Below, in pieces: positions 25,849-35,920 of a stretch of DNA of 64,000 nt. A program made the translations under genes and the position numbers. Every line of letters starts with the position of its first letter. The stretch's first letter is position 1. Source of the stretch: an uncultured Spirochaetales bacterium (lineage in GTDB: Bacteria; Spirochaetota; Spirochaetia; CAZAKE01); NCBI GenBank assembly GCA_964485495.1, contig CAZAKE010000001.1, forward strand, positions 7,906 to 71,905, read 5' to 3'. Below the pieces are notes generated by a model, which saw nothing but the letters and a program-made list of their open reading frames with translations, was not told the DNA's origin and searched no databases.

Positions 25849-27153
25849 TCAGTGTTTTCTCAGAATATACAGCGGTCTCACCTGTCCCGCCCGAACGGCG
25901 GGTAGAAACGCGGCCAGGACCGAGCATACAAGGGCGATCACCATTACCCCGGCGAGTTCGTAAAACGGCAGTATAATCGGAATCTCTTCGAGATAATATT
26001 CCGGATTCAGCACTCGATATTCTGTCGCCGGGAGCGGAAAAAACGGCCCCATCATCAGCCGCAACACGGTATTGAGACGCAGAATACCGGATTCGAGCAG
26101 CCGTATGATCTCATTCACCCTGACCCCGACGAGAAGGCCGATCGCGATCCCTGTGATGGTTCCGATGAACCCGATTGTTACGGCACCACCGAGAAAAATC
26201 AATGTGATCGACCTCGGAGAGGCCCCGAAACTCTTCATAATCGCTATTTCGGGCATATTTTCCAACACGAGCATGGTCGTCGCTGATGAGATGTTGGAGA
26301 CGGCTACCACCACGATGACCCCCATGATGAAGAGTAGCAGCACCTTCGTCGACCGAAGACTCCTGTAGAGTGATCGGTCGATCTGATACCAGGTATATAC
26401 ATACCAGTTATTGGGAACCTGTTCCGCCACCATCATGGCGACCCGATCGATGTGATCGAAGGGATCTTCCGTCCTCAAGCCGACAAACCCGCTCCCCCCT
26501 CCGCCGAACAAGCGCCGGCCCAGTTTCAGCGGTATGTAGACTGTCATCGAATCCAGCTGCCTGTATCCACTGGAGAAGATCCCGTCCACTATGAGACGAC
26601 TCGGTCGAAGCACGGGCGACCTCCCTCGCTCCGTCCGGGCGGTCAACAGTACTATCTGATCTCCCGGTGCGACACCAAGGGTTTCGGCGGCGCCGGTACT
26701 CAGCAGAATGGACCGTTCACCGGAGAAAGTAAGATCACCCGCCTCCGCCGTTACGTAGCCGATGAAATCCCGGTCGGAGGCAAACTCCTCCGGAGGTAGC
26801 GCCCGTACGGAGACTCCGGTCTTGCCGGAACTCGAGTATGCCAGTCCGGTACCCTGGATGACCGGGACTACTCGTATGACTTCAGGGACCACCGAGCAGG
26901 CTTTCGTGAGATCGCGGACGTCCTCCTCGGACGGGACGGAGAAACTCCTCAACTGAAGGTGATAGGAACCGAGTTCGATATACCGTTCGGTGATGCCACG
27001 GATCATCCCGTTGGTCACGATGAGTACCACCACCAGCGGCACGAGGGCCAGACATATTCCCACCGCGGCACCACGCAGATATCCTCCGGGACGTCCGCCG
27101 CCTGCCGATTGCAAGTTCTTCTTCGTTACCGATACGATTGCCCGAATGTTCAT
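25849..27153 (-). CDS. Lipoprotein-releasing ABC transporter permease (LolC/LolE, FtsX family)
   Basis: VLIVTNG, VDGIFSSG, YTWYQID, EIAIMKSFGASP, YYLEEIP, PAVRAG. Confidence 0.9.
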   Translation of the reverse strand: MNIRAIVSVTKKNLQSAGGGRPGGYLRGAAVGICLALVPLVVVLIVTNGMIRGITERYIELGSYHLQLRSFSVPSEEDVRDLTKACSVVPEVIRVVPVIQGTGLAYSSSGKTGVSVRALPPEEFASDRDFIGYVTAEAGDLTFSGERSILLSTGAAETLGVAPGDQIVLLTARTERGRSPVLRPSRLIVDGIFSSGYRQLDSMTVYIPLKLGRRLFGGGGSGFVGLRTEDPFDHIDRVAMMVAEQVPNNWYVYTWYQIDRSLYRSLRSTKVLLLFIMGVIVVVAVSNISSATTMLVLENMPEIAIMKSFGASPRSITLIFLGGAVTIGFIGTITGIAIGLLVGVRVNEIIRLLESGILRLNTVLRLMMGPFFPLPATEYRVLNPEYYLEEIPIILPFYELAGVMVIALVCSVLAAFLPAVRAGQVRPLYILRKH

Positions 27154-27872
27154 GCCGTATGGATTCTTCCCTTCTCAATCGTGAGCATCCTGTTCCCCTT
27201 GGCTCCCAAGGCTCGATCGTGGGTCACGAGAATCATGGTCTTGCCACGATCGGTTACCAGAGCGAAGAGCAGATCGGCGATCAACTCGGCATTGCCCGCA
27301 TCGAGGTTTCCCGTCGGTTCATCCGCCAGTATCAGGGAAGGATCGTTGACCAACGCCCTCGCAACCGCGACTCGCTGACGTTCTCCCCCGGAGAGTTGTG
27401 CGGGTATATGGTCCATCCTCTCATCGAGGCCTACCTGCCGCAGGAGTGAGCGGGCGGTTTCCCGGGCCCGTCCCATGGAGGTGCCGGCCATGAGTGCCGG
27501 CAGCATGACATTCTCCAAGGCGGTGAAGTCCTTCAGCAGGTAGTGGAACTGAAATATGAGGCCGATTATCCGAGATCGGTACTCCGTCAGATCTTCCTCC
27601 CGTGACGAGGCGACATCGTTCCCGACAACGGTAATGGTGCCTTCGGTAGGCCGGTCGAGGCCGGCGATCAGATTGATGAGGGTACTCTTTCCGCAGCCGC
27701 TGGCGCCGGAGATGGTCACGGTCTCTCCCTCAGCAATCTCAAGAAACACATCATCGAGAATCCGGAGTCGCTCGGGACCGTTTTCATAGACTTTCGTCAT
27801 TCGGCGTACATCCACCACGATGTTCGAGGGACTGTTCGGTTGATTTTTTCGATTCTCCGATACCATCTTCAT
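27150..27872 (-). CDS. lolD: Lipoprotein-releasing ABC transporter ATP-binding protein
   Basis: GASGCGKST, LolD motif FQFHYLLKDFTALENV, LSGGERQR, ADEPTGNLD, VTHD. Confidence 0.92.
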   Translation of the reverse strand: MKMVSENRKNQPNSPSNIVVDVRRMTKVYENGPERLRILDDVFLEIAEGETVTISGASGCGKSTLINLIAGLDRPTEGTITVVGNDVASSREEDLTEYRSRIIGLIFQFHYLLKDFTALENVMLPALMAGTSMGRARETARSLLRQVGLDERMDHIPAQLSGGERQRVAVARALVNDPSLILADEPTGNLDAGNAELIADLLFALVTDRGKTMILVTHDRALGAKGNRMLTIEKGRIHTA

Positions 27873-29224
27873 TCGAACCTCAACACCTCCGCCGGGCTTA
27901 TCACGACAACCCGCCGAGAGGCGATGCGAGCCGCAGTAACCGACGATGCAAACGCGAATGCGAATATGGCCGCCGTTTCGGGAAGGAGCACTCTGACGGG
28001 TACCTCCATGGCATTGAAAATAGACGGGATCAGAGTACCCATCCGTTGCCCCCCCCCACTCGTCACGACTGAAGATACCGTGTATGCGAAATCGACGAGT
28101 CGGTTGATGATGCGATCGGCTATTTGTAGGATCGTGTTGATCTTCGCGGACACGAGCAGGCCCATCATGGTTCCCAACGTGGAACCTACCAGACCCACCA
28201 GAACTCCACTCATCGTGAAGATACCGCGGATCTGCCGTGGAGAGGCGCCGAGGGAGCGGAGAACCCCTATCTCCTCCTGTCGTTCCCGCACCTCCCTCCG
28301 GAGGGCATGATAGATGTTCACCCCGACCACTACGAATATCAAGCCGACGAGTACCATCATGGTGACTTTTTCTGTTCTGAGGGCCCCGAAGAAGGACCTA
28401 TTGAAATCGCGCCACGACTCACACGCTGCGAGGATCGCCTCGGTATCGAATCCCCGCCGTCCGAGATACTCCAAAATCACATTCATGCCTCTGATATCCC
28501 GATCCTTGTCCGTGAGTTTGATTCCCCAGAAAAGGTCGTCGATCCCGGAAGCCATGGAGAGTCCGGTCTCCAGCGGTACGAAGGCCATGGCTGAATTGAA
28601 TTCATACGTTTCGCTCCGGAAAACACCGGCGAGTCGGAGCCGGGTAACCGATGGATTCAATGCGAGCCCCGATCCCTTCGCCAGTGAGAGGACGGTGATC
28701 TCCTCTCCCACTGCGGTTCCCAGAGTTATCGCCAGATCGGCGCCGAGGATCACGGATCCTACAGCCAGATCACCGACCATCGAGGCGGAAATTCCGAGTC
28801 GTTGGAGAAATTCGCGATCACCGGAGGCGATCCGGGTATCGATCCCGCGAACCATCACCGGCCGCAGTCCCGAGTATTCGCCGTTTGCTAAGGTTTGTAC
28901 ATCGACACATGGCACGGCAATCCTGATTCCCGGCAATTCAGCCATGGACTCGACTTCCTCACGCAGTCGAAGCGGTTCCGATCCGTCGTTCACTCCAGAT
29001 TGGAGATTGGAGAGGAGTGACGGCGTAATTCGGATATGATACGACTCTATCTCCAAGATGTCTTCGATGAAAGCGAGCTGGAACCCGTTCATTACGGCCA
29101 TCACCGATATCAACGCCATCACCCCCACGGTGATACCGACTACCGAGAGTATCGTCGGAGAAAACCGCTGCTCCTGCCTCCTGCCCACGAAGTGACGCAC
29201 CGCGATAAACCAGGTCCAATTCAC
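27869..29224 (-). CDS. Lipoprotein-releasing ABC transporter permease (LolC/LolE, FtsX family)
   Basis: LISVMAVMNGF, SWRDFNRSFFGALRTEK, EEIGVLRSLGASP, PAEVLRFE. Confidence 0.92.
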   Translation of the reverse strand: MNWTWFIAVRHFVGRRQEQRFSPTILSVVGITVGVMALISVMAVMNGFQLAFIEDILEIESYHIRITPSLLSNLQSGVNDGSEPLRLREEVESMAELPGIRIAVPCVDVQTLANGEYSGLRPVMVRGIDTRIASGDREFLQRLGISASMVGDLAVGSVILGADLAITLGTAVGEEITVLSLAKGSGLALNPSVTRLRLAGVFRSETYEFNSAMAFVPLETGLSMASGIDDLFWGIKLTDKDRDIRGMNVILEYLGRRGFDTEAILAACESWRDFNRSFFGALRTEKVTMMVLVGLIFVVVGVNIYHALRREVRERQEEIGVLRSLGASPRQIRGIFTMSGVLVGLVGSTLGTMMGLLVSAKINTILQIADRIINRLVDFAYTVSSVVTSGGGQRMGTLIPSIFNAMEVPVRVLLPETAAIFAFAFASSVTAARIASRRVVVISPAEVLRFE

Positions 29225-30264
29225 GATCCGCCTCCGGTTCTCCCGAAGGCGGGGATAAACTCCTCTTTACTGCGCTGTTCGTCTTCATAGTACACCTTGA
29301 GAAAGATTCGCCCCTCCCGGTAGATCTCCTCCGTATAGGAGTTCTCTCCGGTGTAGACAGTATTCATGATCATCTCGCCGTCCCGCAGGTACCGCTCCGC
29401 CGTGAGTTCGTCACCCTCATATACATATTCCCATCGTTCGGTTGTGCCGGGTGATCGTGCCGTCTTTGCTACCTGTTTTCCGTCCTGGTACTCGTATCTG
29501 ACCTTCAACTGTCCGTCCGGGCCCGTCCCGCTCTCCTGAACGATATTGCCGGATTCATCATACTGCCGCTCCACCACCGTTCCAGTAACGAAATCGGTCT
29601 CAACCGCACGTTTCGGATTGTATGAGAGGATCTCGGATCGGTATAGGAGGGCCCCCTCCCGCCATTTCTCTTCCGCCATGGGTCCTTCGGAACCGAAGCG
29701 AAATACCGTCGAGGCTTCCTCGTCTCCATGCCACTCCCCGACGAGATCCACTCCCGAGAAGGTATACGCCGACACATCCCGGCCGCCTGCCGCATAGGTC
29801 CTGATGAGTCGCAGGAGTCGCCCGGTTCCATCTCGGACGTACGCATCTTCATAGACCTTCCCCGCCTCGTCATAGGCGACGATCTTCCGGAGCACGTCAC
29901 CGGTGTACCGGTACTCGAACCGTACTTCCAGCGAGCCGTACCGAAACAACTCTTCGGCGATAAGACGGCCCTCCTCGTAGGTTTCCACCGTTACGGGGGT
30001 ATCCCCCTCGAATGATTCGACGATGCGCCTCCTGCCCAGCACCGTCGATCGCCATCGCCTCACCGCTTCTCCGTCCTCGTAGAGGGTGCGGAGTGCAGTG
30101 CCGTCGGTCTTCTCGATGGTGAGAACGTACTGAAACTCGTCGGTCCGGTATTTCGAAATTTCGGCCAGCGGCATTCCCAGAGAGTTGGAACGGAAGAAGG
30201 TCTCCTCGGCGGTGAAAACACCGCAGATGAGACAACCCAGGATGATCCACCATACTCGTCTCAA
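29221..30264 (-). CDS. Exported hypothetical protein with repetitive Tyr/Gly/Glu beta-strand motifs (YwqK/MORN/RHS-like)
   Basis: Signal peptide followed by repeated units such as ETYEEGRL, FEYRYTGDVL, YEYQDGK, YVYEGDEL. GTGA overlaps on both sides. Confidence 0.7.
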   Translation of the reverse strand: MRRVWWIILGCLICGVFTAEETFFRSNSLGMPLAEISKYRTDEFQYVLTIEKTDGTALRTLYEDGEAVRRWRSTVLGRRRIVESFEGDTPVTVETYEEGRLIAEELFRYGSLEVRFEYRYTGDVLRKIVAYDEAGKVYEDAYVRDGTGRLLRLIRTYAAGGRDVSAYTFSGVDLVGEWHGDEEASTVFRFGSEGPMAEEKWREGALLYRSEILSYNPKRAVETDFVTGTVVERQYDESGNIVQESGTGPDGQLKVRYEYQDGKQVAKTARSPGTTERWEYVYEGDELTAERYLRDGEMIMNTVYTGENSYTEEIYREGRIFLKVYYEDEQRSKEEFIPAFGRTGGGS

Positions 30265-31130
30265 TCCGTTTCTCCGAAGAGTTGCTCCAGGAAGTGCTCG
30301 CTGTCGAACCGCCGCAGATCTTCGTACCCTTCGCCGGTTCCAACGAACGCAAACGGCAGCTTCAACTCCTTACAGATGGAGATGATGCTGCCACCCTTGG
30401 CGGCTGAGTCGAATTTGCTCAAGATCACCGCATCGACACCGATTGCTTCGTTGAACACCTCCGCCTGCCGATATCCGTTCAGACCGGTAGTCGCGTCGAT
30501 TACCAACAGTTTCTTGTAAACGCCGCCGATCCGCTTCCCGCCGATCACCTTGTCGATCTTCTGCAACTCTCGAACGAGATTCGCCTTGTTGTGCATCCTG
30601 CCGGCGGTGTCGGCGAAGATGAGTCCCCGTCCCTCGGTCAATACACTGGTAACGGCATCAAACACCACCGCCCCGGGGTCCGAGCCCGGCTCCTGTCGGT
30701 AGGTCCTGATCCCGAGTCGGTCGCCGTGTATCGACAGCTGATCGATGGCCGCCGCGCGGAACGTGTCGGCGGCTGCCAAATACACCGGTACGTCGTACTC
30801 ACGCCTGTACAGGCCGGCGAGCTTTGCGATGGTGGTCGTCTTTCCGACGCCGTTGACCCCGAGAACCAGAAAGACGTTGACCGTGTCGGGATCGACATCG
30901 ATGGTAGTGGAGACGAGATGTTCGGCTATGATATCCCGCAAGGATTCGATCATCTCGTCCCGACCGGCTCCGGCCCCCCTTCCCGCCTGTCTGAACTCGT
31001 CTACGATGGTGGTCGCCGTGATGGGACCCATATCCGCCTCTACGAGTAGGTCTTCCATCTCCTCGTACAGCTCTTCGCGTTCCCGATTTCCCCCAAACAG
31101 TCGTGAAAACCGTTCTCTGATGCTTCTCAT
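30261..31130 (-). CDS. ftsY: Signal recognition particle receptor FtsY (NG domain only)
   Basis: GVNGVGKTTT, AADTFRAAA, DTAGR, DATTG, KFDSAAKGG, GTGE. Confidence 0.96.
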   Translation of the reverse strand: MRSIRERFSRLFGGNREREELYEEMEDLLVEADMGPITATTIVDEFRQAGRGAGAGRDEMIESLRDIIAEHLVSTTIDVDPDTVNVFLVLGVNGVGKTTTIAKLAGLYRREYDVPVYLAAADTFRAAAIDQLSIHGDRLGIRTYRQEPGSDPGAVVFDAVTSVLTEGRGLIFADTAGRMHNKANLVRELQKIDKVIGGKRIGGVYKKLLVIDATTGLNGYRQAEVFNEAIGVDAVILSKFDSAAKGGSIISICKELKLPFAFVGTGEGYEDLRRFDSEHFLEQLFGETD

Positions 31131-31196
31131 GTAGCTCCTCTCGCGTGGTGTATGATTCGTCTATCTATCAATCCGCTTCGTCCTGTTTGCACCTCG

Positions 31197-32633
31197 TTAT
31201 CTGTCCGAGGCCTGAACATATTCGACCAGCCGAACCACCGAATTGACGAACAAGGTCACGTTGAGAAACACCCCGCCGATAAACCCCGCGACGGTACTCA
31301 GCGAGACGTTCCAAAGCCGCAGCTGTTCATCGCCTTCCGCCTGCCGCGCGGCGGTGAGGTAATCGGACTGTACGGAGTACAGAACGAGACTCGCCGGAAT
31401 GGAGAGGGCGAACGCGGCGAGCGAGCCATAGAATGCATCCCTGGTCCGCTCGCGGTACGGTTCGGTCACCGTTAGCGCCGGTTTCAGATCGATGGCGATA
31501 GGGTTCTCTATCTCGGGATTCAGGAAGATCGCCCTCTCCTCGTATCCCTCCAACCGCAGGGTTGCCTGACTGATGTTTCCGTCATAGGGAATGAGGGCCG
31601 GAGTAGTTCCCTGAAAGAGCGAGCTCAGGAATATTGAGGCTCCCTGCGGCCGACTCCTGAAAAGAATTTCACGAACATCGGCCTGCTCGAGGGTGAATTC
31701 CTCCCGGAGTCTCTCGTATGGACCTACAGCGATCATTCGGGACGCTGTTGTATACCCCGGCGCCGACACCTCCACGAGATACTCACCGGGTTGGATGAGT
31801 CTCAGATCGGCGCTGCCGCTGCCTCGGGATGTTCCGTTGATGGCGATCTCGGCGGTTGGTGGCGTGACAAGCAACGAAAGCCCGGCCCAGGGACGGCCGA
31901 GTAGTAGTTCGGCTATCTGATTTCTCGGAGTCACGAGTCTCTCCGCGATCCCCTCGATCGATGCGGCATCGCTGTAGACGTATATCCGCTCGTTCAAGGC
32001 GGTCATGTAGATCCACACCTCAATGAAGATGAAGCCCTGGATCTCCTCGATACGCCCGGATATCAGGAGATCGAGCTTCTCCGCAGCCGTAAAATCCGCC
32101 TCGAGCCCGTTGGGGAAGGGAAGCAACCTCCGTTCACTATTCCGTTCATGCAGTTCGATGGGCTTCTCTCGGGGCACGGTAATCTCGTCGGGATCCGTCA
32201 ATTCCAACGCCACGATCCCATCGAGTGCGTCCCGTATTCGTTTCTCCGCGGCATCGAGTTTTGCCGTGTCGGTGCCGACCTGAAAGAAGAGTGTATCTCT
32301 CGCCGTATAGAGCGAACCAAGCGATACCTTCCGCTTTCCGATCTCCGTATCGATCAAGGAAGCCTTGTATGCGAGGAGTTCGGGATCGCCGAAGATATGA
32401 TGGTCGCATGTCTCGACCGTCTCGATGATGGAGAGGGGAAAGCTCGAAGAAAGGTATGCATTGGTATCGGACAGGACCGCGTCGAACTCGGTGACTCCCA
32501 CCCGGTAGTTCCCGGACGGATCGCTTGGGAGCGCCGACTGCTCCTCAGCGAAGAGTTTGCTGCATAACCCGATTGTAAGAATCGAGACGAGTCCTCCCAC
32601 CAGAAGGAACCTCGATGCGCACCGTCCCATCAT
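31197..32633 (-). CDS. Exported PEGA-domain protein with C-terminal TM helices
   Basis: Signal peptide; two PEGA-like repeats (VTPPTAEIAING...PGEYLVEVSAPGY and RSRPQGASIFL...GTTP...LEGY); two C-terminal hydrophobic helices. Confidence 0.78.
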   Translation of the reverse strand: MMGRCASRFLLVGGLVSILTIGLCSKLFAEEQSALPSDPSGNYRVGVTEFDAVLSDTNAYLSSSFPLSIIETVETCDHHIFGDPELLAYKASLIDTEIGKRKVSLGSLYTARDTLFFQVGTDTAKLDAAEKRIRDALDGIVALELTDPDEITVPREKPIELHERNSERRLLPFPNGLEADFTAAEKLDLLISGRIEEIQGFIFIEVWIYMTALNERIYVYSDAASIEGIAERLVTPRNQIAELLLGRPWAGLSLLVTPPTAEIAINGTSRGSGSADLRLIQPGEYLVEVSAPGYTTASRMIAVGPYERLREEFTLEQADVREILFRSRPQGASIFLSSLFQGTTPALIPYDGNISQATLRLEGYEERAIFLNPEIENPIAIDLKPALTVTEPYRERTRDAFYGSLAAFALSIPASLVLYSVQSDYLTAARQAEGDEQLRLWNVSLSTVAGFIGGVFLNVTLFVNSVVRLVEYVQASDR

Positions 32634-33007
32634 CGGGGATTCACCGACTTTTCGATGGCCGATAGTATCCGCTCCGGTCTGAACGGCTTCACGATGAAAT
32701 CACGCGCTCCGAGGCGAATGGCCCTGATGATATATTCGCGCTGATCCATCGCCGAACACATGATGACACGGGCCTTCTCGTCCAGGTCCATGATCTTTGC
32801 AAGGGCTGTTATTCCATCGAGGACCGGCATTGTGATGTCCATCAAAACCACGTCCGGCGAAAGCCTTCTATAGGCACGGACGCCCGCACGGCCGTCCGCG
32901 GCTTCGCCCGACACCCTGAATCCATGGCTCTCGATTATCTCCCGGATCGCGGAACGCATGAATTCGAGATCGTCGACGATCAGGACGGAAATGTCCGCTT
33001 TTCTCAT
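32630..33007 (-). CDS. Single-domain response regulator (CheY-like)
   Basis: LIVDD, phospho-acceptor in VLMDITMP, MCSA, FIVKPF. Confidence 0.92.
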   Translation of the reverse strand: MRKADISVLIVDDLEFMRSAIREIIESHGFRVSGEAADGRAGVRAYRRLSPDVVLMDITMPVLDGITALAKIMDLDEKARVIMCSAMDQREYIIRAIRLGARDFIVKPFRPERILSAIEKSVNPR

Positions 33008-33080
33008 CTTCCGGCTGCCGGCTCCTCTCAGACGATCTCGGCGGCTATCGGTGCCACAGGATCGATCTCGATGATGCCCG

Positions 33081-34185
33081 TCAATTCGACTGGGCCCAAT
33101 TCCACTTCAGATAGGCCTCGATGAACCGGTCGATATCTCCGTCCATCACCGCCTGGACGTTACCGGTTTCCGCATCCGTGCGGTGATCCTTCACCATGTT
33201 ATATGGATGGAATACATACGATCGGATCTGATTGCCCCAGGAGATGTCCTTCTTCTCCTGCGCGTGCTTGGCCTGCTCCTCGTCGGCGATCTCCTGATAG
33301 TGCTCATACAACCGGCTCTTGAGTACCTTCATGGCCATGGCTTTGTTCTTGTGCTGGCTGCGCTCGTTCTGACATTGCACCACCATTCCGGTCTCCAGGT
33401 GGGTAATCCTAACGGCGGAATCGGTCTTGTTGACATGCTGACCTCCGGCACCCTGGGCACGGTAGGTGTCGACCCTGATATCGTCAGGCCGTATCTCCAC
33501 CTCGATATCCTCTTCGATGACCGGCGAGACGTACACCGATGCGAAGGAGGTGTGACGTCGCTTATTCGAGTCGAACGGCGAGATCCGTACCAACCTGTGG
33601 ATGCCGGTCTCTCCCTTGAGGTACCCGTAGACCGAATCACCCTGTATCTGCGCCGTCACCGACTTGATGCCCCCCTCGGCCTCCAGCATGTCGAGGATTT
33701 CCATCCGATAGCCGCGGGTTTCAACCCATCGGGTATACATCCGAAGCAGCATCTGAACCCAGTCACACGCCTCGGTGCCGCCGGCCCCGGAATGGATGGT
33801 GAGAAAGGCGTCTCCGGAGTCATACTTGTCGCTCAGGAGCTCCGACAGCCGCAGGCTTCCGTGTTTCCGTTCCAGAGCCTCGAGCAGCTCTTCGACTTCG
33901 GCCAGGGTACCATCGTCGTCCTCCTCAACCGCCAACTGGTAGAGTTGATCGGCCTCCTCAACCTCCCGTCGGATCTCCTTCCATGGTTCTATCCGTTTCT
34001 TCAGGCGGTTCAGCTCCGACAGCACCTCTTCCGCGTTTTCTCGGTCGTTCCAGAAGTTCGGATCCGCGGTCTTGCTCTCCAACTCGGACACCTTGGCCTG
34101 AGTGCTCTCCGGGTCAAAGATGCCTCCATGTTTCTTGTATCTGTTCTTTCAGCGTCTCGAGGGCACCGTGTAATTCCGTACTCAT
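33081..34185 (-). CDS. prfB: Peptide chain release factor 2 with programmed +1 frameshift
   Basis: 23-codon first frame MSTELH...WRHL ends in CTT TGA C (34119-34113); the +1 frame continues DPESTQAKVSELE. SPF and GGQ motifs are present. Confidence 0.97.
34113..34127 (-). other. RF2 autoregulatory frameshift cassette (internal SD GGAGG plus CTT TGA C)
   Basis: Minus strand GGAGG-cat-CTTTGAC, the canonical prfB slippage site. Confidence 0.95.
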
Positions 34186-34194
34186 TATTTCCCT

Positions 34195-34220
34195 CCTACT
34201 CTCAAATCCTACTCTCAAAT
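34195..34220. repeat. 13-bp tandem duplication abutting the prfB SD (core ctactctcaaat x2)
   Basis: Minus strand ATTTGAGAGTAGG x2 immediately before the SD and ATG. Confidence 0.75.
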
Positions 34221-34230
34221 GTTTTCAGGC

Positions 34231-34503
34231 TCAGATATGTACGACCGTACGCCGCCATTTCTTGTTACGCAAGTGCGTTATCACGAGGACATCGTCCATG
34301 GGATATTGGTAGAATCGCACGCTGTCGTAATAATCGGTAATATGATCGATATCCCTCTTGAGTCGCAGCAGCGTCTGATCGGTAATGGTCACCGATTCAT
34401 ACAATCGCTCATGGATCTTCTTGAATCCATATTGAGTCAACATGTTGTCTACGGCTATCTGCTGGTCGTCTGAAGAAAGCTCGGTAGCGACGGCGACGAA
34501 CAT
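34231..34503 (-). CDS. Stand-alone Cas2-like (ferredoxin-fold, Cas2/VapD superfamily) protein, 90 aa
   Basis: MFVAVATELSSDD...LTQYGFKKIHERLYE...DIDHITDYYDSVRFYQYP follows the Cas2 pattern (hydrophobic beta1 plus acid, YGxxxQxSVFE-like, DxxxDSVRxY). The start at 34503 is fixed by its promoter. Confidence 0.75.
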   Translation of the reverse strand: MFVAVATELSSDDQQIAVDNMLTQYGFKKIHERLYESVTITDQTLLRLKRDIDHITDYYDSVRFYQYPMDDVLVITHLRNKKWRRTVVHI

Positions 34504-34510
34504 GGTATCC

Positions 34511-34539
34511 AGTGTAATTATAAGTCCATACACTGTCAA
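34511..34539 (-). promoter_or_regulatory. Consensus leaderless promoter TTGACA-N17-TACACT-N7-ATG
   Basis: -35 at 34539-34534, -10 at 34516-34511, ATG at 34503. Confidence 0.7.
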
Positions 34540-34666
34540 ACCCCCGCCGGAGAGTGCCAAACGTACGAAAATACTATGGACTTTTACCCTTTCGGTCGAA
34601 TAGTATGGTAGATGAGGCGAGTTCGATAGTTCCATTTTGAACCTGCCTCATATGTGGAGATTCGAT

Positions 34667-35920
34667 GTGAGAATTGTGTATACATTTCACGGCATAGTCG
34701 TTTGTGTCCTACTTTGTTTCGCCCCTCTGCTCTGGGCACAAGAGGAAGCCACCGGCGACGTATTCTCCCCCTTCGTATCCCGCCTAAGGGCGCAGGTGGA
34801 GTCGAATACCATCATCCTCTCTTGGAGAGACACCTCCGATGTCGACGGCACCTACCTCGTATACCGTCATACACAGGAGATCGGTCCGGCAAACTTCCAA
34901 CAGGCCGAACTCATCGCAGAGGTCGATTCCGGAACCGAATACTATGTCGATCATCCCTACCTCAGTATTCCCTTCTTCTACGCCGTACTCGCCGAGGATA
35001 CGGATGGTGAATTATACGAATTGTTCATCCCCTTCCGTAACAAGACGGTGAATGGCGTTTCGGTGCAATCGGTAATCAGCGAGGAGGAACGAGTCGCCGA
35101 GATTTCCGATATTTCCACGAAGATCCGGAATGAGTCGATCGTTCTCGGCTTTTCCAACGACAAACTCGACCGCCGGTTGATCGTGTACCGCAATACCGCA
35201 CCCATCTCTTCAATCGACGACATCCTGAAGGCCAATCTGCTGACGACGATTCCGGGTACCGCAAAGGAATTCGTCGATTACCCGGTACCGGGCGTTCCCT
35301 ATTACTACGGTGTTTTCGATGCCGAACAGGTCAAGACCGGCTCGTTCACGTTCAATACCGACCAAAACGTGACGACGGTGCCGGTCGAGATCCCGCTGAC
35401 CGAGACTACCATCGGACTAAATTTCTCCAAGAGTACTACATCACGGTCGAGACCGTTGCCATACCTTCTCCTATCGTCATCGGTAATCAGCGGAGAGGCG
35501 TTGAGCTCACCGATCACCATCACGACTCCGGAACCGAACGTGATGGCACTACCGACGGTGAAGGCGCTCGCCGGCATTCTGAATACCATCGAACCACCGC
35601 CTGAGCCGACACCGCAGCCGGTGATCCTGGCGTATGACACCATTCCCCATACCGGCGGAGAAGAGTATACCCTTGGAACGATCCTTAACCGCGAGTTCAG
35701 ACGGCGTGAGTGGGACGCCACCGAACGGCTGTTGACCAATTTTCTGAGCGTGAAGCGTTCACGCCCCACGGAGAACCGTACCCGGTTTTACTTGGGACAG
35801 GTCTACTTTTTTCAGGAGAAATACCGAGAAGCCTTCTTGGAGTTTCTCCTCGCGGCTGAGACCACGTACGTGGAATCACAAGAATGGCTGGACATCGTCT
35901 TGCAAAAACTCAGACTGTAG
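34667..35920 (+). CDS. Exported protein with two FN3-like repeats and a C-terminal TPR
   Basis: GTG start with SD GGAG and a signal peptide; two homologous units (IILSW...YLVYR...YYVD...FYAV and IVLGF...LIVYR...FVDYP...YYGV); TPR RFYLGQVYFFQEKYREA. Confidence 0.7.
   Translation: MRIVYTFHGIVVCVLLCFAPLLWAQEEATGDVFSPFVSRLRAQVESNTIILSWRDTSDVDGTYLVYRHTQEIGPANFQQAELIAEVDSGTEYYVDHPYLSIPFFYAVLAEDTDGELYELFIPFRNKTVNGVSVQSVISEEERVAEISDISTKIRNESIVLGFSNDKLDRRLIVYRNTAPISSIDDILKANLLTTIPGTAKEFVDYPVPGVPYYYGVFDAEQVKTGSFTFNTDQNVTTVPVEIPLTETTIGLNFSKSTTSRSRPLPYLLLSSSVISGEALSSPITITTPEPNVMALPTVKALAGILNTIEPPPEPTPQPVILAYDTIPHTGGEEYTLGTILNREFRRREWDATERLLTNFLSVKRSRPTENRTRFYLGQVYFFQEKYREAFLEFLLAAETTYVESQEWLDIVLQKLRL

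Follow-up and report, generated by a model that had tools for sequence, protein, structure and literature searches.

A divergent Cas2-fold protein encoded upstream of prfB in Spirochaetota, probably exapted outside CRISPR

Results and Discussion

A Cas2-like gene precedes prfB in a conserved gene neighborhood

The window (the whole 64-kb stretch of DNA that we analyzed) carries on its minus strand a Cas2-like gene, here called Cas2L, at positions 34231-34503 (ATG at 34503, TGA at 34233-34231). The gene encodes a 90-aa protein that starts with MFVAVATELSSDD and whose sequence runs from MFVAVATELSSDDQQ through to a C-terminal KKWRRTVVHI. We rejected a longer, 134-aa frame from the ATG at 34635 because the N-terminal MFV is invariant at the 90-aa start (M/V-F-V in 81/81 family members) and the upstream frames are short, unconserved and often closed. 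The reading frame is intact in all 81 loci and contains 19 near-invariant residues. Cas2L thus genuinely encodes a protein, a divergent one with the Cas2 fold, and the sequence, fold and profile match bear out the 90-aa Cas2-pattern gene of the original prediction.

Between Cas2L and prfB lies a 45-nt spacer (34186-34230, minus strand), the same distance that had been noted before. The spacer holds an exact 13-nt tandem duplication (TCCTACTCTCAAA twice on the plus strand, 34194-34220) directly before the Shine-Dalgarno (SD) sequence of prfB, GGAGGG. No terminator-like hairpin was seen in the spacer and no minus-strand terminator was found in the 32500-35000 region, which includes the interval between Cas2L and a cheY-like gene. 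Across the family, the spacer has a median length of 23 nt (range -8 to 142 nt) and is no longer than 60 nt in 72/81 loci. The prfB gene (release factor 2, RF2) spans 33081-34185 on the minus strand, with its ATG at 34185, and has the programmed +1 frameshift site CTT TGA C at 34119-34113, 3 nt after an internal SD (GGAGG, 34127-34123). Each of the 81 loci has such a CTTTGA site, some 66 nt into the prfB that follows Cas2L.

Downstream of prfB, and also on the minus strand, are genes for a CheY-like single-domain response regulator (32630-33007; Pfam Response_reg, E 2e-30), a 478-aa PEGA-domain protein (31197-32633; Pfam PEGA, E 2.4e-11) and the SRP receptor FtsY (30261-31130), which marks the conserved end of the syntenic block. 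The CheY-like gene overlaps the next gene by 4 nt, and we infer that it belongs to the same transcription unit as Cas2L and prfB. Upstream, the neighbor of Cas2L in the window is a divergently oriented gene for a 427-aa protein without a Pfam match. The same-strand run that follows the Cas2L promoter (25849-34503, minus strand) comprises Cas2L, prfB, cheY, the PEGA protein gene, ftsY, a 347-aa gene and three ORFs, most of them joined by overlaps or short gaps. As judged from this arrangement, the run may be one very long transcription unit. In Treponema parvum the genes after ftsY encode MacB/FtsX and ABC-transporter (Lol-like) proteins, and the window ORFs at this place are similar in size.

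We scanned one genome per species and recovered 246 species with a relative, of which the best 80 were analyzed. Where the record title gives a taxon, all of these 80 are Spirochaetota (three titles read "uncultured bacterium"), and they include Spirochaetaceae, Treponemataceae, Rectinemataceae, Oceanispirochaeta, Sediminispirochaeta and Gallitreponema. When we checked cas2-prfB synteny across Spirochaetota in this set, prfB lay directly downstream of Cas2L and on the same strand in 80/80 genome loci (the best 80 of the 246 species). The same adjacency was found in 22/22 metagenome carriers and in the cultured T. parvum, whose prfB product has the PCRF and RF-1 Pfam domains and whose FtsY homologue has SRP54_N and SRP54. 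Among loci with enough flanking sequence, the downstream neighbors were kept to different degrees (ftsY in 71/71, the PEGA protein gene in 68/71 and cheY in 43/76), as were the divergent 427-aa gene (61/73) and a GH57 gene (44/64).

A near-consensus promoter with leaderless geometry

Cas2L is preceded on the minus strand by a -35 hexamer (TTGACA, 34534-34539) and a -10 hexamer (TACACT, 34511-34516) separated by 17 nt. The promoter matches the consensus at 10/12 positions and is the only such match on the minus strand between 32500 and 35000. The -10 hexamer ends 7 nt before the Cas2L ATG and no SD was seen before this start. The distance from the -10 hexamer to the ATG predicts a leaderless or near-leaderless Cas2L mRNA.

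This geometry recurs throughout the family. In 76/81 loci the start is preceded at 3-12 nt by a TAnnnT element, and an SD-like motif is present in only 5/81. The full pattern (-35, N16-18, TAnnnT, N3-12, start), with a TTGAC-type -35 in the same relative position, was found in 93/102 homologous loci against 0.6 expected from shuffled sequences. T. parvum has the same geometry (TTGACA-N17-TATTCT-N6-ATG). Hence, the TTGACA-N17-TACACT promoter and the leaderless geometry described in the original prediction are both present in the sequence and recur across the family. Leaderless mRNAs prefer an AUG start. Six family members start with GTG, and four of these are among the nine loci that lack the full promoter pattern; this distribution fits the AUG preference. 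Two such GTG-start loci without the promoter pattern (L068 and L089) have an SD-like motif instead. The sequencing runs that contain the Cas2L locus are DNA only and come from a microbial-mat metagenome. From these features, the near-consensus sigma-70 promoter would start transcription at or adjacent to the AUG, and a prfB-(cheY)-PEGA-ftsY transcription unit would have Cas2L as its first, leaderless cistron.

Cas2L has a Cas2 fold and forms a separate clade

The Pfam (PF09827) and NCBIfam Cas2 models did not match the window Cas2L even at E ≤ 10; some of its relatives carry precomputed PF09827 matches. The PADLOC Cas2 profiles matched the window protein at E 3.6e-6 and below, and the top solved structures retrieved with a profile of 33 family members were the Cas2 chains 3exc, 6k2e, 1zpw and 4qr0. 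An AF2 model computed from the 33-member family alignment reached a pLDDT of 95.6. Its predicted elements are β1 (residues 2-8), α1 (12-24), β2 (28-31), β3 (34-37), α2 (42-55) and β4 (61-69), followed by an extra, basic C-terminal hairpin (72-88) that contains KKWRR. In a Foldseek search of the PDB with this model, the top 41 matches were all Cas2 or Cas2-domain chains (probability 0.99-1.00, TM 0.6-0.74); the target TM reached 0.74 for stand-alone Cas2 chains, and VapD appeared at ranks 42-43. An hhalign comparison of the family with eight canonical Cas2 proteins gave a probability of 98.9% (E 2e-17) and paired T7-E8 with the invariant Y7-D8, E36 with the glutamate of SVFE, and D60, R63 and Y65 with the D-S-V-R-x-Y motif. 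The Cas2/VapD fold that had been proposed from the sequence is, therefore, recovered by profile, AF2/Foldseek and hhalign comparisons alike, all of which give a Cas2 fold and homology.

The family nonetheless stands apart from canonical Cas2. A HMMER search of 1.84 billion representatives returned only 66 proteins at E ≤ 1e-3. Near-full-length matches (at least profile positions 1-88) scored at least 71 bits, except for the chimeric-looking P0107 at 50 bits. The lowest eight rows scored no more than 40 bits, and all six of them that were scanned carry PF09827 at E ~1e-20. Among these 1.84 billion sequences, the PF09827 proteins matched by the Cas2L profile have E-values of 5e-5 to 8e-4. By these scores, Cas2L appears as a compact clade, homologous to canonical Cas2 yet clearly separate from it, and this clade is restricted to Spirochaetota. 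The family comprises 742 protein clusters (90% identity, E ≤ 1e-5), many of which bear the JGI or NCBI name "CRISPR-associated (endonuclease) Cas2", T. parvum WP_210116753.1 among them. The statement in the original prediction that similar stand-alone treponeme genes are labeled cas2 is correct, since such database entries are members of this family. We found no description of this spirochaete family in the literature that we searched, and Gupta's spirochaete signature paper makes no mention of it.

A short, predicted leaderless ORF immediately before prfB could also have arisen by chance, or it could be translated merely as a leader that adjusts the expression of prfB. This idea has next to no probability given the 742 protein clusters at E ≤ 1e-5, the 81/81 intact frames with their 19 near-invariant residues, a dN/dS of 0.074 (median of 82 pairs) and the very confident fold prediction.

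Descent of Cas2L at the prfB locus

To avoid ascertainment bias, we sampled prfB loci from metagenomes with the RF2 of the window as the query. Cas2L was directly upstream of prfB in 22 of the 68 assessable loci and not in the other 46, and a six-frame HMM search of the loci gave a bimodal split between presence and absence. Small ORFs upstream of prfB in the loci without Cas2L were considered as candidates and rejected, as none matches the family HMM. The lack of an HMM match upstream of prfB indicates that Cas2L is truly absent from these loci rather than merely diverged. In the non-carriers, prfB is directly preceded by genes for GH57, LarA or other enzymes, or by the 427-aa gene without room for Cas2L.

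On the RF2 tree, a single clade of 119 rows contains all carriers, together with 18 non-carriers in about five compact groups. The presence and absence of Cas2L on this tree requires 5 changes versus 39 under shuffling, and none of 500 shuffles was as low. In Mantel tests, the pairwise divergence of Cas2L correlated with RF2 divergence (rho 0.48, p = 0.001) and with FtsY divergence (rho 0.47, p = 0.001), and RF2 and FtsY correlated with each other at 0.68. The history of Cas2L that emerges is one of a single old gain upstream of prfB, vertical descent, about five compact losses and a few relocations. This history indicates a gene that is widespread and strongly constrained but not indispensable.

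The surroundings of prfB vary within the sample. In four loci (L090, L110, L113 and L119) prfB comes directly after a GH57 gene, and both the 427-aa gene and Cas2L are missing from the interval. L121 and L125 have the 427-aa gene right next to prfB and no Cas2L, and L015, L045 and L061 have Cas2L without the 427-aa gene. These mixed combinations imply that the two genes come and go independently.

Two divergent members lie away from prfB, both on low-GC contigs. P0081 (L083, 6001-6276) is located between groEL and a 436-aa gene and has an SD; its GroEL neighbor places L083 in Spirochaetota (GWD1_27_9-like). P0082 (L085, 263-541) stands alone. Both proteins keep the YQYP and KKWKR motifs and not the full D53/D57 motif, and neither has cas genes alongside. 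We considered a partner shared with the divergent branch and rejected it, as the 436-aa neighbor of P0081 is not homologous to the 478-aa PEGA protein of the window. The lineages without Cas2L and the relocated members show that Cas2L need not be tied to RF2, and synteny extends over the neighborhood as a whole in any case.

Taken with the profile comparisons, this record shows that Cas2L branched from CRISPR Cas2, became fixed once directly upstream of prfB and has been passed on vertically under strong purifying selection outside cas operons. The original prediction had proposed a domesticated housekeeping protein. Vertical descent and purifying selection agree with the domestication part of the claim, whereas "housekeeping" is too strong for a gene that about five lineages of the carrier clade do without.

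No CRISPR or toxin-antitoxin context around Cas2L

No CRISPR array or spaced direct repeats were found in the 64-kb window. A PADLOC scan of its 52 longest non-overlapping ORFs (at least 100 aa) detected no Cas1, Cas3, Cas9, Cas10 or Cascade proteins; the only cas-labeled matches were Cas2 (the Cas2L gene) and a Csa3-like match (1e-14). The repeat and PADLOC scans, thus, agree with the earlier observation of a gene without cas1, another cas gene or an array within 64 kb. Other PADLOC matches in the window were to SspA/DndA (E ~1e-84 to 1e-88) and BrxL-like (4e-11) models and to the AAA, mad2/mad3/mad8, DolB and PDC-M37B models. Our guess is that the matches other than Cas2 come from paralogues with housekeeping functions, for instance a cysteine desulfurase, an HTH regulator or a Lon-like AAA protein. 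CRISPR-like arrays were also absent from the 80 related loci (1.1 Mb), and plasmid and phage collections held no Cas2L homologues. The homologues are not encoded in cas operons, and confinement to such operons would have spoken against domestication; prfB is the downstream gene in every genome locus analyzed and in T. parvum.

Homology to Cas2, and the name Cas2 that family members carry in public databases, would also suit a genuine CRISPR adaptation protein that serves, in trans, a cas2-less cas1 locus at another place in the genome. Cas loci have a patchy distribution and are horizontally mobile. Cas2L, by contrast, keeps a fixed place upstream of prfB across several spirochaete families, and its descent tracks that of RF2 and FtsY. 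The window has no other adaptation or interference cas gene and no array, the 1.1 Mb of related loci has no array either, and there is a large bit-score gap to canonical Cas2. Furthermore, the C-terminus, which in Cas2 contacts Cas1 (PMC10491678), is replaced by the family-specific basic hairpin. An adaptation role in trans is, on this evidence, exceedingly improbable.

Alternatively, Cas2L might be an endoribonuclease toxin of the VapD kind, or else serve as effector in a toxin-antitoxin or abortive-infection defense module. VapD shares the fold (Foldseek ranks 42-43), and stand-alone Cas2/VapD nucleases such as BPSL1038 occur in CRISPR-less lineages (PMC10491678). Every Cas2 match, however, outranks VapD in the Foldseek search, and Cas2L has no small partner gene, its neighbors being the 427-aa gene and prfB. 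A constitutive near-consensus promoter without an antitoxin, vertical inheritance at a single locus with a dN/dS of 0.07 and the absence of plasmid or phage matches also weigh against a toxin, and we regard this role as very unlikely.

Conserved residues and putative mechanism

The window Cas2L reads T7-E8 where canonical Cas2 has Y7-D8. Position 8 is Asp in 66, Glu in 14 and Ser in one (L073) of the 81 members, and it is Ala in one metagenome member, P0003. The Ala of P0003 and the Ser of L073 mean that catalysis through position 8 cannot be universal. The original prediction had pointed to "TE" at the β1 catalytic position; the reading is present but makes a weaker case for a lost active site than it might seem to, as the residue is acidic in 80/81 members and has family-specific invariant Asp residues beside it. 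The tyrosine of the Cas2 "YD" pair is Cys in 64/81 members, which gives a conserved Cys-Asp pair (Thr-Glu in the window) that could be a different metal ligand set.

Six residues (E36, D53, D57, Y59, D60 and R63) are invariant in 81/81 members. F2, G26, Q66, P68 and W83 are further family-specific invariants, and K81, W83 and R84 are located on the added basic C-terminal hairpin. The family-specific invariants are concentrated in the α2-β4 loop, and a part for this loop in substrate recognition has been discussed for Cas2 proteins (PMC10491678). With the fold topology of the model (4-1-3-2, β4 antiparallel to β1), D53, D57 and D60 are inferred to adjoin D/E8, on the face that in Cas2 makes up the metal-binding interface of the dimer. 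The median pI of the family is 7.8 versus about 9.4 in canonical Cas2, and a near-neutral pI is less typical of a general nucleic-acid binder. Several members (P0024, P0032, P0033 and similar) have C-terminal extensions of 10-50 aa rich in K/R/P/S after the KKWRR hairpin, and the window Cas2L does not. We considered an ArfA/BrfA-like basic tail and rejected it: the K/R-rich extension is missing from the window Cas2L and many others, so such a tail cannot be a conserved mechanism.

An acidic position 8 and the family invariants that adjoin it favor a dimeric, metal-binding nucleic-acid factor that probably acts on RNA. As a tentative mechanism, Cas2L could act as a homodimer, like Cas2, and use an acidic face composed of D/E8 at the end of β1 and D53, D57, Y59 and D60 of the α2-β4 loop. 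Together with the Trp-bearing basic hairpin (K81, W83 and R84), this face might bind metal and bind or cut nucleic acid, most likely RNA. The process would be independent of CRISPR and co-expressed with translation termination. On balance we find it probable, although well short of assured, that Cas2L is an exapted Cas2 serving as a metal-binding nucleic-acid factor co-expressed with RF2.

The near-neutral pI and the rare non-acidic variants at position 8 would also suit a purely structural role. The exapted Cas2 fold would then have lost catalysis and would have only a scaffolding or regulatory function. It might, for instance, be a dimeric adaptor that binds RF2, the PEGA protein or a factor associated with the ribosome, or it might repress its own promoter. 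Cas2 has a comparable structural part in the Cas1-Cas2 integrase, and during CRISPR adaptation it acts as a scaffold that can do without its nuclease activity (PMC8987985). In Cas2L, Glu, Ser and Ala all occur at position 8, neither Y7 nor R15 of canonical Cas2 is retained, and the invariants F2, G26, Q66, P68 and W83 could form a protein interface. Set against this are the predominance of acidic residues at position 8 and the four further invariant acidic residues that surround it by fold topology, a pattern more typical of a metal site; no partner has been identified. We take a scaffold role seriously as a possibility while judging it rather unlikely.

The putative link between Cas2L and translation comes only from gene order, which is strict among carriers at the prfB locus. 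The region is syntenic in general and some members have relocated, and both facts weaken the link. A Cas2-derived translation factor that is co-expressed with RF2 on a leaderless transcript and acts on the ribosome or mRNA at termination is a reading that we consider unlikely. Such a factor might, for example, be a nuclease for RF2-linked rescue or quality control, or it might modulate the +1 frameshift of prfB. If true, this would be the first case of a CRISPR protein fold taken into the core translation machinery of a bacterial phylum.

Implications

Hundreds of spirochaete genes are labeled "CRISPR-associated (endonuclease) Cas2" though they are not CRISPR-associated. Counting these mislabeled genes inflates CRISPR-Cas surveys and produces false "orphan cas2" calls. 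Cas2L is probably a Cas2-superfamily offshoot exapted outside CRISPR and recruited for a non-CRISPR job. It offers a clean case of the Cas2 fold leaving the immune system: the gene is now chromosomal, descends vertically, keeps a fixed address and has a strong promoter and a predicted leaderless mRNA. Carriers at the prfB locus, the cultured T. parvum among them, all have the two genes adjacent (100%), which hints at an accessory factor that may be specific to this lineage and linked to translation termination. Cas2L also complements BPSL1038 and the Legionella Cas2, and bears on the purpose of the Cas2 nuclease face.

Comparison with known systems

Canonical Cas2 proteins (PF09827/COG1343; SSO8090 3exc, Thermus thermophilus TT1823 1zpw and Streptococcus pyogenes 4qr0) have in common with Cas2L the ferredoxin-like β-α-β-β-α-β core, in register from residue 1. 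They also share an acidic residue at the β1 catalytic position (in 80/81 Cas2L members), the glutamate of SVFE (E36) and the D-S-V-R-x-Y motif of β4 (D60, R63 and Y65). Unlike them, Cas2L is not beside cas1 or an array and occupies a fixed, vertically inherited place upstream of prfB. Its Y7 is replaced by C or T, R15 is not conserved, and the protein has the extra invariants D53, D57 and Y59 and the KKWRR C-terminal hairpin. It also differs in its lower pI (~7.8 vs ~9.4) and falls below the Pfam and NCBIfam thresholds.

VapD toxins (Haemophilus influenzae VapD/VapX 6zn8 and Helicobacter pylori HP0315) resemble Cas2L in fold, in the acidic β1 residue and in their small, stand-alone size. A VapD toxin-antitoxin system would be expected to have an adjacent small antitoxin (VapX-like) and often to be carried on mobile elements. 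Cas2L, in contrast to these systems, has no antitoxin partner or mobile-element association, has a constitutive promoter and is structurally a weaker match to VapD than to Cas2.

The closest concept to Cas2L is BPSL1038 of Burkholderia pseudomallei, a stand-alone Cas2/VapD-fold nuclease subfamily in a CRISPR-less lineage (PMC10491678). Both have a Cas2 fold, are conserved within a single bacterial lineage, are viewed as CRISPR-independent offshoots of Cas2 and keep the acidic β1 residue, but no specific sequence relationship is detectable between them. The BPSL1038 motif D11(X20)SST (PMC10491678) is absent in Cas2L, whose residues 29-31, 20 positions after D/E8, are K-I-H. BPSL1038 ends in a long α3 helix whereas the Cas2L model ends in a β-hairpin, and BPSL1038, unlike Cas2L, has not been reported as prfB-linked or leaderless. 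A further parallel is the Cas2 of Legionella pneumophila, for which a role independent of CRISPR in the infection of amoebae is reported (Gunderson et al., 2015, as cited in PMC10491678). Though encoded in a cas operon, unlike Cas2L, the Legionella protein as described there is a precedent for a Cas2 nuclease working outside spacer acquisition.
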